Shown: in pieces, positions 2,177 to 46,419 of the stretch
Layout of the letters: each line of letters opens with the position of its first letter
Numbering within the stretch: position 1 is the stretch's first letter
DNA from: a virus
Virus record (IMG/VR): IMGVR_UViG_3300032241_002679
Span: 77,844-141,843 of that record
Direction: 5' to 3' (one strand)
Length of the DNA stretch: 64,000 bases
The notes under the pieces: model-generated
Told to the model about the DNA's origin: nothing
What the model saw: the letters and a program-made list of their open reading frames with translations, nothing else
Database searches by the model: none
Made by a program: the position numbers and the translations under genes

Positions 2177-3592
2177 ATGGTATTAAGAACCTTTTTTGAT
2201 AAAACTAACACTATTGTTTATAATGATTACACCAATACTGGTAGAAACCCAATTGCTCAATTATTCTATGGTGGCTCAGATGGACTAAATACATATAGCC
2301 GTCTGTTATTTCATTTTGATGAATCTAGATTAATTAATTACTATACTGGTGGCACTTTTACAGATTTAAATAAAGTAAAACATATACTTAAATTAACAAA
2401 TACTAGTTCGTTTGATAAATCATTATTAAATACTTCATACGATGGTATATATAATAGAAGCTCATCATTTGATTTAATTGTTTTCCCAGTTAATCAAATC
2501 TGGGACGAAGGTGTTGGTTATGATTATACAAATGGTTCAAATTTAATAAATGGAGATTTGGCTGTTTCTACATTGCCATCTAACTGGTTTTATTCACAGA
2601 GTGGTATATATTGGGATAATGGTGGTGGTACTTTTTCAGGATCACCATCAGAAATGATCATAGCGACACAACATTTCGATGCTGGTAATGAAAATATGGA
2701 AGTTGATGTAACTGATTTTGTGAATGGTATATTAACTGGTAATACAAATTATGGAATGGGTATAGCATATTCTTATGCATTTGAACAAACAAGTACGCCA
2801 CAAATACAGTATGTAGGATTTTTTACAAGACATACTCAAACTGCTTATGAGCCATATATAGAAACAAGATATGAAAACTATATTCAAGACGATAGAAATA
2901 ACTTCTTTCTAGATAAGATTAACAAATTGTATTTATACGTTAATTTGGCTGGAAATCCGACCAATTTAGATACACTACCTACTGTTACAGTATATGATAA
3001 TTATGGTGGCATATTTTCAGCCTATACAAGCTCTGACGTAAATCATATAACTAAAGGCGTTTATAGTATAGATTTACTCATACCAACAAATACATCATTT
3101 AGCGATGGTATGCTATTAAATGATGTATGGGGTAATATTCTTATTAATGGTATATCAAGACCAGATATAAAACTTAGCTTTGAATTAATGGATAGTTGGA
3201 AATACTATAATCTAGGTAGTAGCGATTCATTACCAAAACAAGTAGCTGTAACCGTATCTGGAATATATGCAAATGAAAAAATTAAACGTGGTGATATTAG
3301 AAAAGTAATTGTATCAACAAGAATACCATATACCGTTAATCAGACCCAAGTAATAACTGGATTAAAATATAGACTATACGTAACAGAAGGACAAAATGAA
3401 TTAACTATTGTTGATTATGAACAAATAGAAATGACTAGCAATAGTAATTACTTTTTAATAGATACACAGAGTTTATTACCAAATACTTATTATGTAGATA
3501 TAAAAGTAGAATCTAATTTAGAAATTATTACATTAAGTAATGTATTAAATTTTGATATAACAAGTCAATCAACATGGAGAATTAGCCAATAA
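2177..3592 (+). CDS. Virion structural protein, beta-rich
   Basis: 471 aa, beta-rich, next to baseplate genes, preceded by ATATTTAT at 2157-2164. Confidence 0.55.
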   Translation: MVLRTFFDKTNTIVYNDYTNTGRNPIAQLFYGGSDGLNTYSRLLFHFDESRLINYYTGGTFTDLNKVKHILKLTNTSSFDKSLLNTSYDGIYNRSSSFDLIVFPVNQIWDEGVGYDYTNGSNLINGDLAVSTLPSNWFYSQSGIYWDNGGGTFSGSPSEMIIATQHFDAGNENMEVDVTDFVNGILTGNTNYGMGIAYSYAFEQTSTPQIQYVGFFTRHTQTAYEPYIETRYENYIQDDRNNFFLDKINKLYLYVNLAGNPTNLDTLPTVTVYDNYGGIFSAYTSSDVNHITKGVYSIDLLIPTNTSFSDGMLLNDVWGNILINGISRPDIKLSFELMDSWKYYNLGSSDSLPKQVAVTVSGIYANEKIKRGDIRKVIVSTRIPYTVNQTQVITGLKYRLYVTEGQNELTIVDYEQIEMTSNSNYFLIDTQSLLPNTYYVDIKVESNLEIITLSNVLNFDITSQSTWRISQ

Positions 3593-3957
3593 TGAAAACA
3601 TTTTTTAAAATATTATTATCCGATAGTAATAAAATATCTATGAAAAGATTCATAGGATTATTATGTCTTATTATGTTTATAGCCTATGGAATTGTTGGTC
3701 TATATAAACCATTTAACCAAAGTTTCTGGATATTCTATGTAAGTCTATGTACCATAACCATTTGGATCGCATTTAAATTTATGACATCCGATAAAATTCT
3801 TAAATATGATGTAATTGGTAAACTTACAAAATTTAATAATATTAAAAATGCTGTTGAAAATTTTACAGAAGAAGAAAATGAATTAGATGATAATATTCAA
3901 CCAAATAATACAGCCTCAGGATCTACTTCAAATACAACATCCGCTCCAATGGAATAA
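3592..3957 (+). CDS. Small two-TM membrane protein (holin-like candidate)
   Basis: Two hydrophobic helices after SMKRFIG; polar tail. Confidence 0.45.
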   Translation: MKTFFKILLSDSNKISMKRFIGLLCLIMFIAYGIVGLYKPFNQSFWIFYVSLCTITIWIAFKFMTSDKILKYDVIGKLTKFNNIKNAVENFTEEENELDDNIQPNNTASGSTSNTTSAPME

Positions 3958-4017
3958 TTTTTAAAAATTACTTGACTATTTAATAATTATTATTATATTT
4001 TATTTACGTTAACTCAA

Positions 4018-4075
4018 GTATTGGAACCCAGAATTAAATGTCTGTTGAGTCATTAAATGACAAAGGTTTTAGTAC
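4018..4075 (+). promoter_or_regulatory. Putative structured 5' leader RNA (three-way junction with two ATTAAATG hairpins)
   Basis: 4018-4028 pairs with 4065-4075; hairpins caga-ATTAAATG-tctg (4029-4044) and gtcATTAAATGac (4049-4061). Confidence 0.55.
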
Positions 4076-4106
4076 ATAATAACAAAAAAATTAAAAGTTA
4101 ATTATT

Positions 4107-4964
4107 ATGAAAAAAAACTATGTAAATGGTGCATTGGCACCAAGTGCTGTGATTTGTATTAACAAATCCAGACTAAAAATCTATCACAAAGAAAGTAATC
4201 CGACCTATTATCTAGAAAATGGTCAGGAATTCTCAATTGAACTTCACAATCCAACTCACAATACCGTTCTAGCTAAAATAGAGCTTAATGGTAAGCAGAT
4301 CTCACAGGGTGGTATAGTATTAAGGCCAGCAGAAAGAATCTTCCTAGAGCGTTATATAGACGTTCCTAATAAGTTTAAATTTGAGACATATAAGGTCTCA
4401 AATACTAAAGAAAATAGGGAAGCAATAAAGGAAAATGGGGATATTGTCGTTAGGTTTTATAATGAATCAACACCATATACCACATATACATATAATCCAA
4501 TCCTTACCAATGGTACATATTATAATAATAATTTACAATATTATTATAATAACCCTAACTTTACTACTGCATCACCTAAGTTTACGGTAACTACTACCAA
4601 TGGAATTGCTACTAGTGGTTCTTATAGTGCATTAAATGCATTAAACACTACCAATACCTTTAATTCATCTGGTACATTGAATATGACCACAATGGATGCT
4701 TTTGCTGGTAACGCTACAAGTAATTATACATCATCAATAGAGACTGGTCGTGTTGAAGGTGGAAGTGATTCAAATCAGAAATTTCAATTTGTAAACAAAA
4801 TGTTTGATAATTATCCGTTTTTTACTGTTGAATATAAATTACTACCATTTTCCAATAAAATTAATACTGTGGGGGATATTAATGTTAAAAGATATTGTCA
4901 CAATTGTGGGGCAAAATTAAAATCAGAATACAAATATTGTCCACACTGTTCTGTAAAAATATAA
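4107..4964 (+). CDS. Hypothetical protein with beta-sandwich-like N-terminus and C-terminal zinc ribbon
   Basis: CHNC...CPHC at the C-terminus; T/N/Y-rich linker; own promoter-like TTGACT at 3972 and own terminator. Confidence 0.7.
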   Translation: MKKNYVNGALAPSAVICINKSRLKIYHKESNPTYYLENGQEFSIELHNPTHNTVLAKIELNGKQISQGGIVLRPAERIFLERYIDVPNKFKFETYKVSNTKENREAIKENGDIVVRFYNESTPYTTYTYNPILTNGTYYNNNLQYYYNNPNFTTASPKFTVTTTNGIATSGSYSALNALNTTNTFNSSGTLNMTTMDAFAGNATSNYTSSIETGRVEGGSDSNQKFQFVNKMFDNYPFFTVEYKLLPFSNKINTVGDINVKRYCHNCGAKLKSEYKYCPHCSVKI

Positions 4965-4984
4965 ATAAATAATTGAGTTAACGT

Positions 4985-5013
4985 AAAAAGCTGAGATTTA
5001 CTCAGCTTTTTTT
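4985..5013. terminator. Bidirectional intrinsic terminator
   Basis: aaaaagctgag-attta-ctcagcttttttt between convergent genes. Confidence 0.8.
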
Positions 5014-5016
5014 AAT

Positions 5017-5415
5017 TTAAACGGTATATTTAATTTTGTCATCATCCGCAACATTTGTCTTTAATTCTGATTTTTGAAGTATTTTAATAGCGTTATCTAT
5101 AGATATTATTTTAAACATAGTAAAAGGAACAATACCATCCCATACTACCTCTTCTGCATAACCATATTTTGGCAATTTATTCGTCTTAAATAATATAGCA
5201 ACTTGTCTTTTTTCATTCTTTGGTAAAACAGCACCTTTATTATATATTCCCCATTTTGCTGAAACCGCCCATGTACTAAAACCATCCTTACCTAATGATT
5301 TTTTATCAATTATATTTTTACTATTTTCTAATGTAGTAAAATGTATAAACATATCATCACTTAAACTTTTTTTAATTAGTTCTTCTTTTAATATTTTTTT
5401 TATGAACAATTTCAT
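5017..5415 (-). CDS. Putative internal head protein, ART-like fold candidate
   Basis: Likely start MKLFIKKILKEE, 4 nt after ATATTTAT; FIHFTTLENSKNII motif. The ORF-track extension runs through the MCP terminator. Confidence 0.55.
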   Translation of the reverse strand: MKLFIKKILKEELIKKSLSDDMFIHFTTLENSKNIIDKKSLGKDGFSTWAVSAKWGIYNKGAVLPKNEKRQVAILFKTNKLPKYGYAEEVVWDGIVPFTMFKIISIDNAIKILQKSELKTNVADDDKIKYTV

Positions 5416-5441
5416 AATAATAAATATTGTCTTTAAAACAA

Positions 5442-5467
5442 AAAAGCCCCACATAAGTAGGGCTTTT
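5442..5467 (-). terminator. Intrinsic terminator of the capsid operon
   Basis: aaaagccc...gggctttt just downstream of the MCP stop. Confidence 0.75.
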
Positions 5468-5488: not shown

Positions 5489-7381
5489 TTATCTCAATTC
5501 AGCTACATTAAATGTAACCACACCATCAACTCTAACACCAGCATAGAATCTGTTATTAACAGATTTCTTAGCATAACGTGTCATGATACCTTTAACAGGA
5601 GCAAAGTTGAAAGGATTGTACATAGTTGGGGTTAATTGCAATGGCACATATGGCGCATAGATATAACCAGTATCCAACAATGATTTACCTTTATGACCTA
5701 CAATGACACTGTAAGCAGGAGAATAAGGGTCACGATACACTTGGTAACGACCACTCAATGTTCCAATTCTTTCAATACCCATGTTATATTGGTCTTGCTC
5801 AGGGTTAGCATCACTTACGTGGAAATATTCAAGATCATCGAATATTGCAGAAATTTCTGAAGATACTACGATGAAGTTTGCACCACCACGCAATGTTGAT
5901 TTATGAATTTGTGCGCTAAGTTGATTAATCTTAGTGATAAGAGTTTGGTTCCAGTCTTTTTGTGTATAAGGACTAGCAGCTGAAGAAGCTTTTCTCCAAC
6001 CATTATAATCCCAACGCAATTGCCAAGCACCAAGTTTACGTAAATCTCTAAGGATTTCACGGTCAATTTCAGCAGCAATTTGTTCAGACAACATAGCAGT
6101 CAATTCAGCTTCAGCGTCAATGTTATGGAAAGCACTAACGTCTTGAGCCAATTCAGGTGACCACGTTGCTCTTAATTTTCTTTCTTCAACAGCCACAACA
6201 ACTTCTTGAAGTGTGAAGGTAACTTCTCCAAGTTCTGTTTCAAGTTCCAAAGAACTATATTCAGCCCATGCAAAAGAGAAAATATTAGTATATGCTGATG
6301 CTGTAGAACCAGAAGCTCCTACATAACCATCATAAGTTGATGTACCGTTAACGGCAGCACCAGTAGCAGATGTACCAACTGGATGTCTAAGATCCATCTC
6401 AATATATATTACACCTTGTGGTGATGTTAATGAACCTTTATTTTGAACAATAGCCTTACCATATTGTTGAGTTACTACTCTGAAAGGAACTTCTTTATTA
6501 GCAGCAACAATAACGTTATTATCTTGGTCCAAAATGTTTGAAGAAGTAACACAGTGTAATGAAGCTAAGAAAGATTCAGTATCCATGTTATTACCATCTG
6601 GTCCTGTTAATACTTCAGTACCATTAGAACCACCAGCACCGCCACTAAATCCACTTAAACCGATAATTACACCTCTCAATGAACCATCAGTACTTGTAGG
6701 TAAAGAAGAAGCTGGAGCAGCTACATTAAGATTACCAGTTGAATCAAATGTATAAGCGTTTAATGAAACACCAGTACCTGCACCAGAAGTTTTAATAGTC
6801 AAAGTACCTTTAGAATTATCAAACAAGCCATCATTGTAGAAAATATCATACAAATTTTTAGCATAGAATTGAGTTAATGGTGTGTTATTTGTAGCTTTTA
6901 CTACTGCATAAGGTAATGCAGCATTTGTAGCAGAACCATTGTGTTCACCATTCAATCCAGTATGTGCTGAATATGTTGTACCATATACATCACTACTTGA
7001 AGTTGTGCTATAATCATTTCCTGCAACACCACCACCGTCAACACGGCTAGATGTCTGAGGTACGAAGTAGAACAATTTACCGATAGGCATGTTCATTGCT
7101 TGAACAGATACGATATCGTTAGCCAATAATTTAGAGAATACTCTTCTCACAATTGGGAATACAACTGTTTCGAAAGAACCTGATGAAGTAGCAGTTGTAG
7201 ACTCATTCAAAAGCGTTGATGCTTGGTTCTCATATAATTGGGCAATGTTTTCTTTTACATGACCTTTAAGGCCTTCCAAGAATCCCAAGCTATCCCATTT
7301 TGCTTGAGTTTCTTTACGGATTGCTTTCATATGGTTCAATCCGATGTTACCAACTTGTCCTGATGTTAATAAATGTGACAT
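5489..7381 (-). CDS. gp23: Major capsid protein (T4 gp23-like)
   Basis: VSVQAMNMPIGKLFY, RKLRATWSPELAQD..AFHNIDAEAEL..LSEQIAAEIDREI, YAPYVPL, GIMTRYA motifs. Confidence 0.97.
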   Translation of the reverse strand: MSHLLTSGQVGNIGLNHMKAIRKETQAKWDSLGFLEGLKGHVKENIAQLYENQASTLLNESTTATSSGSFETVVFPIVRRVFSKLLANDIVSVQAMNMPIGKLFYFVPQTSSRVDGGGVAGNDYSTTSSSDVYGTTYSAHTGLNGEHNGSATNAALPYAVVKATNNTPLTQFYAKNLYDIFYNDGLFDNSKGTLTIKTSGAGTGVSLNAYTFDSTGNLNVAAPASSLPTSTDGSLRGVIIGLSGFSGGAGGSNGTEVLTGPDGNNMDTESFLASLHCVTSSNILDQDNNVIVAANKEVPFRVVTQQYGKAIVQNKGSLTSPQGVIYIEMDLRHPVGTSATGAAVNGTSTYDGYVGASGSTASAYTNIFSFAWAEYSSLELETELGEVTFTLQEVVVAVEERKLRATWSPELAQDVSAFHNIDAEAELTAMLSEQIAAEIDREILRDLRKLGAWQLRWDYNGWRKASSAASPYTQKDWNQTLITKINQLSAQIHKSTLRGGANFIVVSSEISAIFDDLEYFHVSDANPEQDQYNMGIERIGTLSGRYQVYRDPYSPAYSVIVGHKGKSLLDTGYIYAPYVPLQLTPTMYNPFNFAPVKGIMTRYAKKSVNNRFYAGVRVDGVVTFNVAELR

Positions 7382-46017: not shown

Positions 46018-46419
46018 ATGAAGAAATTTATAAAAAGTTTACTCAATGAAGGTCTCTTTCATAGAAATTCAAAAGAACAATTGAAGCTAATGGAGGAATT
46101 TATTAACTTTACTTGTAAAGAATTAAACATTGATCCAGTACCAGTAAATCTACAATTTAATCATGATGGACTAGTTACAACTGCAGCATATGGGGATAAA
46201 AAAGTATATGTATATGCTAAAGATCGTGCTATAGTAGATATTATGAGAAGTATAGCACATGAACTTACCCACTTAAAACAAGACCTAGAGGGTAGACTCA
46301 ATCCTAAAAATCATGAAAAAAATAATGCCGCTGGTTCAGATATTGAGAACGAAGCAAATTATAGGGCTGGGGAAATAATAAGAAAATTTGGAAAAATACA
46401 TCCTGAAATTTATCCATGA
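46018..46419 (+). CDS. HEXXH metallopeptidase-like protein with capsid-targeting-like leader
   Basis: MKKFIKSLLNE; RSIAHELTHLKQ..ENEAN; start 4 nt after ATATTTAT. Confidence 0.7.
   Translation: MKKFIKSLLNEGLFHRNSKEQLKLMEEFINFTCKELNIDPVPVNLQFNHDGLVTTAAYGDKKVYVYAKDRAIVDIMRSIAHELTHLKQDLEGRLNPKNHEKNNAAGSDIENEANYRAGEIIRKFGKIHPEIYP

Follow-up and report, generated by a model that had tools for sequence, protein, structure and literature searches.

The locus and its flanking inverted repeat

The DNA analysed here, hereafter the window, is the final 64 kb (64,000 nucleotides) of a 141.8-kb viral contig, IMG/VR record IMGVR_UViG_3300032241_002679 (G+C 28%; CheckV completeness estimate about 40%). It carries a T4-type gp23 capsid gene on the minus strand (5489-7381) and, convergent with it, a plus-strand gene at 4107-4964, the subject of this work. 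The extreme 5' end of the messenger RNA (mRNA) of this gene is predicted to pair with a segment between its stop codon and its terminator, and the resulting helix, here called the clamp, recurs in homologous loci of jumbo phages, in several clades with unrelated sequences.

The clamp is encoded by a perfect 15-bp inverted repeat, TTTACGTTAACTCAA at 4003-4017 and its exact reverse complement at 4973-4987, which had been pointed out in an initial annotation of the window and was confirmed at the stated coordinates; with one mismatch it lengthens to 20 nt at 95% identity (4003-4022 / 4968-4987). The arms enclose a single open reading frame (ORF) of 285 amino acids (4107-4964), preceded by a leader of about 100 nt. 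A sigma-70-type consensus scan places a promoter at 3972-3999 of the plus strand with a score of 10/12 (-35 box TTGACT at 3972-3977, 16-nt spacer, -10 box TATATT at 3994-3999), which upholds the earlier description of a promoter-like element just ahead of the 5' arm, and a similar arrangement is found in homologous loci. The promoter spacing predicts transcription to start at A4006, 7 nt after the -10 box, and the transcribed and paired part of the 5' arm would accordingly comprise 4006-4017, an assignment based on complementarity to 4973-4987, on the fold and on the conserved position.

Downstream of the 5' arm, and on the same strand, follow a three-way junction in the leader (4018-4075; transcript fold, RNAalifold, pair counts and covariance model) and an A-rich translation initiation region that is devoid of a Shine-Dalgarno sequence and holds a conserved AAAAGTTAA at 4093-4101 (4076-4106; leader alignment). 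The coding sequence is predicted to specify a beta-sandwich, a low-complexity linker, an invariant IETGRVE motif and a C-terminal zinc ribbon. The 3' arm begins 8 nt past the stop codon (4973-4987, paired part 4973-4984), and an intrinsic terminator, recognised both by a terminator scan and in the fold, occupies 4985-5017 as a hairpin (4985-5011) followed by a U tract, starting one base past the last clamp pair. The 3' arm is thus located, as had been noted, between the end of the coding sequence at 4964 and the terminator.

Judged from the single window alone, the repeat is only marginally beyond chance. When the window was simulated 100 times with a Markov-1 model, the mean number of exact inverted repeats with arms of 15 bp or more within 3 kb was 1.96 per 64 kb, and 0.1 per 64 kb when at least 5 G/C were demanded in the arm; the window itself holds three further pairs of at least 15 bp, all of them pure A/T. 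No second copy of the arm motif is present anywhere in the 141.8-kb contig, and a blastn comparison of the region with GenBank phages gave no match. The reality of the repeat rests on complementarity kept in homologous loci.

Conservation of the clamp in homologous loci

The comparative set consists of 116 non-redundant homologous loci from uncultured jumbo phages (numbered L below), gathered from encoding contigs, related-locus searches and GenBank phage records. Helices were sought between a 5' zone, -125 to -80 from the ATG, and a 3' zone, the first 45 nt past the stop codon. Complementarity of 10-15 bp is found at the same two places in about 100 of the 116 loci. The best helix between cognate zones has a mean score of 25.8, as against 16.9 for non-cognate zones and 14.6 for shuffled 3' zones, and 91 of the 116 loci lie above the 99th percentile of the shuffles. 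Inspection of the remaining 25 low scorers revealed nine with a clamp just outside the search zone or with one mismatch, seven with a 3' arm displaced by an insertion, three in which a local 5' hairpin replaces the clamp, and about six with no clamp or only a partial one.

The position of the helix is retained while its sequence is not. The closest loci carry ACGTTAACTC and its complement at both places, and loci whose proteins are about 40% identical have a quite different arm pair, GAAACCTTGTT / AACAAGGTTTC. Arm sequences differ by clade (ACGTTAACTC, GAAACCTTGTT, ATCGTGATTGA, GAGCCTCGCTC and TCTCACTTTGTT), those at equivalent places in the other clades being unrelated (GAAACCTTGTT, ACCTTGTGATT, ATCGTGATTGA, GAGCCTCGCTC and TCTCACTTTGTT). 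An independent repeat search recovered the flanking repeat in nine clade representatives, with the arms TTGAAACCTTGTT, TTAACCTTGTGATT, GACCTTGTGGTT, GAGCCTCGCTCT, TCTCACTTTGTT, ATCGTGATTGA, TGTATGATTAACATT and GTTATGGTTAAC. In the homologues the 5' arm starts at the predicted first transcribed base, just downstream of a promoter of the form TTGACa/TTTACA, spacer 17 +/-1 and TATATT/TATAAT; the 3' arm, which extends to the terminator, has its start 5-20 nt downstream of the stop codon's first base. The order of genes is likewise conserved, with three plus-strand genes, then the gene in question and then convergent minus-strand genes that include the capsid gene.

The initial annotation had proposed a loop of about 950 nt, closed by pairing of the 5' end of this monocistronic mRNA with its 3' end. 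The homologous flanks support this proposal through compensatory as well as wholesale changes of the arms, and the complementarity kept in about 100 of the 116 loci is the opposite of the loss that would speak against it.

As a separate observation, locus L179 (LR756500), which has a 12-bp clamp (TCTCACTTTGTT / AACAAAGTGAGA), shows a second, 8-bp complementarity at 282-301 / 1213-1241 (TGTTAAGG / CCTTAACA) that crosses the first in pseudoknot order and may be due to chance.

Helix limits and covariation

The largest clade, of the TTAAC type, provides 51 loci that can be anchored on the central TT/AA. Eleven consecutive positions are 90-100% paired. At the next position toward the leader pairing drops to 25%, and at the positions toward the promoter it is 50-70%, the expectation for A/T-rich sequence. 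Several pair types occur at six of the 11 positions; one of these is A-U in 26 loci, G-C in 15 and U-A in 6, and another is C-G in 36, U-A in 5, and A-U and G-C in 4 each. The 5' limit of the helix falls 7 nt past the conserved -10 hexamer, on the expected first transcribed base (A4006 in the window), and the 3' arm ends at the base immediately preceding the terminator stem.

Transition-type mismatches, G·U or A·C on the sense strand, were tallied in the interior of the helix only; a count with lenient extension of the helix was dropped, as fortuitous A/T pairs in the flanks on the promoter and terminator sides overwhelmed it. The interior tally is 10 G·U versus 2 A·C (binomial p = 0.039), a bias that is to be taken as a trend and not as proof.

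The leader three-way junction

Between the clamp and the initiation region the leader folds into three helices, P1 (4018-4028 / 4065-4075), P2 (4029-4032 / 4041-4044) and P3 (4049-4053 / 4057-4061), whose junction nucleotides are conserved across clades (family consensus CGA, UUUAGAG and AAAG). In an alignment of 66 loci RNAalifold recovers the three-way junction with compensatory changes in 14 of its 17 pairs. Pair counts put pairing in P1, P2 and P3 at 95-96%; on every measure the observed values exceed those of all 500 shuffles, and a control in which the partners were slid by 1-3 columns gives a pairing of only 28-44%. The RNA structure of the leader is thus firmly supported by comparative sequence evidence. 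A local pairing of ACTCAA (4012-4017) with TTGAGT (4045-4050) was considered and rejected, as it shows no covariation and the GAGTT junction motif stays constant where the 5' arm is without AACTC.

When a covariance model of the leader was run on the 141.8-kb contig, its one match was the site at this gene (E value 1.8e-12); in the second locus set it identified 25 further leaders, all of them immediately ahead of the gene. Since matches occur only at this gene and include the clamp-less loci L139 and L146 as well as two huge-phage GenBank records, the leader is gene-specific and kept more widely than the clamp. An Rfam scan of 3800-5200 with E values up to 10 returned nothing on the leader; the handful of weak matches, none of which reached its gathering score, map to the upstream gene, the coding region or the region of the terminator. 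Full-text literature searches brought up the hbs and icaR cases discussed below and nothing on the clamp element or on structured leaders in huge phages. By these comparisons the leader is a previously undescribed element and a candidate for a new cis-regulatory RNA family of huge phages, whose gene regulation is little known.

In the loci L012 and L019 the 5' arm is separated from P1 by an additional hairpin (TTCAG...CTGAA, about 35-40 nt), so that the clamp need not be in coaxial contact with P1.

The genes of the window are without Shine-Dalgarno sequences, and most of their start codons are preceded at 10-25 nt by the motif ATATTTAT, as in the ORFs at 46018, 47032, 39633, 29355, 21839 and 20771. 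This motif is probably the phage's own (late-type) promoter, which would produce very short leaders; with most window genes so arranged, the long structured leader of 4107-4964 is exceptional.

Folds of the whole transcript

In the minimum-energy structure computed by RNAfold for 4006-5013, nucleotides 4006-4017 are paired with 4973-4984, the core pairs having probabilities of 0.99-1.0, and the arm duplex alone amounts to -16.9 kcal/mol. The clamp is contiguous in this fold with both P1 and the terminator hairpin (4985-5011), zero unpaired bases lying between them. A transcript of the CCTTG clade (L093) also holds the clamp beside the terminator in its minimum-energy and centroid folds, such that both kinds of fold contain the clamp in whole transcripts of two clades. 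These models suggest a rod of three stacked helices that holds both ends of the mRNA, with the 5' end buried at a helix-helix junction. Some 10 nt would separate the stop codon, and some 30 nt the start codon, from the common junction. Circularisation had been among the earlier suggestions for the paired ends; in its covalent form it is unlikely, because the 5' end adjoins the base of the terminator stem rather than a free 3' end.

The clamp as a selected RNA structure

Overall, the comparisons support the view that the paired ends are a selected RNA structure and not an invertible DNA cassette. The limits of the helix match the predicted start and the terminator, interior mismatches lean toward G·U, the adjoining leader is itself a supported RNA structure, and one clade keeps a local hairpin instead. 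Moreover, the arms are non-palindromic in several clades, none of the seven ORFs around the site matches a recombinase family, and the promoter stands next to the leader, with no inverted orientation, in every locus whose flanks were read, raw reads not having been examined.

The clade with the local hairpin is informative as to what is being selected. The loci L168, L169 and L172 are without a 3' partner, and at their predicted 5' end, about 100 nt upstream of the ATG, they have a local hairpin, ACUAGAGGUUUCUAGU, which stands before the same kind of leader. This exchange of a long-range helix for a local one suggests that selection acts to keep the 5' terminus paired.

A number of observations weigh on the other side. 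Under a stricter flank rule the mismatch tally shrinks to 6 G·U versus 1 A·C (p = 0.13), and one of the six lies outside the clamp. The central TTAAC core is almost invariant in the largest clade, which plain helix selection leaves unexplained and which hints at an additional, sequence-specific partner. Seven loci (L013 at 2383-3352, L019, L020, L023, L034, L065 and L085) have an insertion of 870-1200 bp within the gene's 3' end, by which the 3' arm is cut off from the gene. The inserts carry reverse-strand homing endonuclease genes of the GIY-YIG or LAGLIDADG type (260-356 amino acids), at least two families thus sharing the same insertion site, and they bring along a new terminator together with a substitute for the final codons of the zinc ribbon; the original C-terminal codons, the 3' arm and the old terminator remain as a remnant 870-1200 bp downstream. 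A further six or so loci, together with the Lak phages, have no clear clamp, and no convincing one was found in the extremely A/T-rich flanks of the Lak megaphage homologues, with TAG read as sense. A GC-richer clade of the L153 type has a helix of 6 + 12 bp, interrupted by an internal loop, and lacks a terminator after the 3' arm, so that its clamp is not at the 3' end of the transcript. As the mRNAs of the insertion-bearing phages cannot form it, the clamp is dispensable, useful rather than essential.

Possible roles of the clamp

Decay of mRNAs that depends on the 5' end is classically impeded when that end is paired, and the role that we consider somewhat better than even is that the clamp protects and stabilises the finished mRNA. 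The first 10-15 nt of the 4107-4964 message would pair with the segment just past the stop codon and directly before the terminator, so that the coding region becomes one closed loop in which terminator stem, clamp and P1 are contiguous. The clamp could form only after the full-length message has been made, and it would then shield the 5' end from decay pathways with pyrophosphohydrolase, RNase E/G or RNase J type entry and at the same time reinforce the 3' end, stabilising the finished mRNA of a probably abundant phage protein. The nearness of the stop and start codons may also favour re-initiation. Stabilisation is preferred because the local-hairpin clade keeps a paired 5' end and because hbs, described below, offers a proven precedent. 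Further, the conservation of the leader junction and the zinc ribbon carried by the product make it a reasonable guess that the encoded protein regulates its own synthesis by way of this junction.

It is tempting to join these elements into a modular closed-loop mRNA device of huge Bacteroidota-type phages, in which a helix of the 5' terminus and the 3' untranslated region (UTR), set between the terminator and a gene-specific leader, hides the ends and returns terminating ribosomes to the start, and in which the junction serves as the operator for self-control by the zinc ribbon. We regard this scheme as doubtful in its entirety, though conceivable; if true, it would constitute a bacterial-virus counterpart of the circularisation of eukaryotic mRNAs, made of RNA alone.

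Translation could itself be the target of selection, if the stop codon and the A-rich start are held at one junction and ribosomes re-initiate there, raising the yield of protein. The geometry of the locus accords with such a loop, given that the 3' arm begins 5-20 nt past the stop codon and that P1 exits about 30 nt before the AUG, and so does the leader of about 100 nt, set against promoter motifs 10-25 nt from the ATG in other genes of the window; in a type of host that works without Shine-Dalgarno sequences, the capture of the start site may moreover be limiting. The clade with the local 5' hairpin, however, keeps the paired end and loses the proximity of stop and start, which favours end protection and leaves recycling of ribosomes unlikely as the primary role; it could coexist with stabilisation.

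Processing of the RNase III type, another of the early suggestions, would treat the paired flanks as a stalk that is cut to release a defined mRNA with paired ends. The duplex does flank a whole gene as in ribosomal RNA (rRNA) precursors; the L153-type helix, with no terminator after it, may indicate a unit excised from a longer transcript; and stacked on its two neighbours in the fold, the clamp becomes part of a quasi-continuous stem of more than 30 bp. However, RNase III usually needs a duplex of about 20 bp, the helix has 10-15 bp with sharp limits in most clades, and a unit with a promoter and a terminator of its own has no need of processing to yield a monocistronic mRNA, such that cleavage appears distinctly improbable as the purpose of the clamp.

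A switch with three partners is about as improbable. Here the 5' arm would alternate between the 3' arm and a look-alike of it near the start codon (AGUUAA; in the CCUUG clade, AUAAGG), and translation would be blocked until the transcript is complete. In the two largest clades a motif 8-10 nt before the AUG does resemble the core of the 3' arm (AGTTAA/AGTTAAC and ATAAGG/ACAAGG), it becomes AAATTAA in the clade whose arm lost TTAAC, and no such motifs are found at other genes of those phages; a switch of this kind could also account for the near-invariant TTAAC core. Against it, the helix is 86% paired by conservation alone with a single pair changed on both sides, the GAGCCTCGCTC clade is without a matching motif near the start codon, and the pairing would comprise just 5-7 weak base pairs.

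Least likely of all, and in our view highly improbable, is a DNA-level element whose arms are recombinase sites, as in the invertible ON/OFF cassette that the initial annotation had offered as an alternative, or sites for a DNA-binding regulator of the palindromic GTTAAC: in its favour are the inverted repeat, a promoter outside the repeat and a GTTAAC core conserved in both arms of the main clade, but of the features of an inverton only the flanking inverted repeats were found, and neither a recombinase in the seven ORFs around the site nor both orientations in the loci whose flanks were read, while non-palindromic arms in other clades, limits that coincide with transcript start and terminator, mismatches of the G·U type on the sense strand, a constant orientation of promoter and leader and the substitution of a local RNA hairpin in one clade all speak for RNA.

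Relation to known systems

End-to-end pairing of bacterial and phage mRNAs has so far been known from a handful of single-gene studies, namely of hbs, icaR and hok. Closest to the clamp is the hbs mRNA of B. subtilis, in which a 14-bp contact of the 5' UTR with the 3' UTR just upstream of the terminator restricts RNase Y cleavage and stabilises the transcript (Braun, Durand and Condon 2017, PMC5737220). A complementary segment in the 5' UTR and another in the 3' UTR just upstream of the terminator of the same mRNA are also found here, and in both systems the pairing is backed by compensatory changes, which in the present case come from nature instead of mutagenesis, with 6 of 11 positions covarying and no fewer than five arm pairs that are unrelated to each other. 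The systems differ in that the 5' partner in hbs lies inside the leader, past two hairpins and over an RNase Y site, whereas here it is the very 5' end, stacked in the fold on the terminator and the three-way junction; the present element, moreover, occurs in phages and is unrelated in sequence.

In S. aureus icaR, the 3' UTR likewise pairs with the 5' UTR of its own mRNA, and its motif occludes the Shine-Dalgarno region, prevents translation and gives rise to a site for RNase III (Ruiz de los Mozos et al. 2013, PMC3868564). The folds gave no indication of such an anti-Shine-Dalgarno pairing for the gene studied here: the partner of the 3' arm is the stretch of nucleotides 1-12 in the transcript, the start codon lies about 100 nt downstream, and the initiation region is left free, the contact being about 85-100 nt upstream of the start codon.

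The hok mRNA of plasmid R1, studied in the Gerdes laboratory, is said to have its 3' end paired with its extreme 5' end by fold-back inhibition (fbi/tac), an interaction that is reportedly also backed by phylogenetic covariation and makes for a compact, stable molecule. A 3'-end pairing with the extreme 5' end is what the fold and the predicted start site suggest here as well. However, hok is reported to be a toxin mRNA, inert until its 3' end is trimmed and accompanied by an antisense RNA and an overlapping reading frame, whereas the present gene is no small toxin ORF and encodes a 285-residue protein with beta-sandwich and zinc ribbon, conserved next to the capsid gene. Toxin, overlapping-frame and antisense features of the hok type were not seen at the locus, no search having been aimed at an antisense promoter. 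Finally, the RNase III stems of rRNA and of phage T7 flank a whole functional RNA, as the clamp does; those stems have at least 20 bp and get cut, while the clamp has 10-15 bp in most clades and a promoter and terminator of its own.

Taken together, the clamp represents a new and widely conserved variant of 5'-3' UTR pairing that is coupled to a new leader RNA. It extends the evidence for paired mRNA ends to covariation that arose naturally among some 100 phage lineages, whose arms are of five or more unrelated sequences, and to what are predicted to be the very first transcribed nucleotides. It offers a natural experiment on the protection of mRNA ends in hosts that do without Shine-Dalgarno sequences, and could be leveraged as a compact stabilising or insulating module for expression constructs.

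The encoded protein, its neighbours and the host type

More than 600 homologues of the 4107-4964 protein were found, mostly on jumbo-phage contigs of 200-370 kb, and the gene family is also present in Prevotella Lak phages and in huge phages of 460-735 kb. An exact-protein look-up did not find the 285-residue window protein on record. Pfam detects the zinc ribbon alone, just under the gathering cut-offs. An AlphaFold model (pLDDT 64.7) consists of a beta-sandwich formed by residues of about 10-125 plus 210-250, a disordered linker rich in N, S and T, and the C-terminal zinc ribbon. The motif (S)IETGRVExGSxSxQ, at residues of about 211-224, is invariant across the family, including clades at 40% identity, and its strand completes the N-terminal beta-sandwich in the model. 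The absence of an assignable function, as first remarked, persists through all profile and structure searches: Pfam, PHROGs, Foldseek against PDB and BFVD, VIA-align wide and the ESM Atlas gave no specific match and returned only a generic Ig/MSP-like beta-sandwich, the zinc ribbon and uncharacterised viral proteins.

The nearest cultured relatives of the capsid protein are from Flavobacterium phages, and with the gene family being present in the Prevotella Lak phages, hosts of the Bacteroidota type would fit. In the Lak phage loci L174-L176 and L180 the gene has in-frame TAG codons, and a frame of the expected length results only when TAG is read as sense, in agreement with the alternative code reported for Lak phages.

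Between the clamp unit and the capsid gene the window has a small minus-strand gene (5017-5454) without a Pfam match. In the same interval of L009 there is a minus-strand gene for 132 amino acids (4426-4824) with a weak match to ART-PolyVal (ADP-ribosyltransferase). Two loci that belong to one phage, L010 (3990-5297) and L011 (1374-2681), carry a gene of the IS605 OrfB/TnpB type (435 amino acids) directly past the terminator of the gene, and mobile genes seem to favour this intergenic site between convergent genes as a hot spot.

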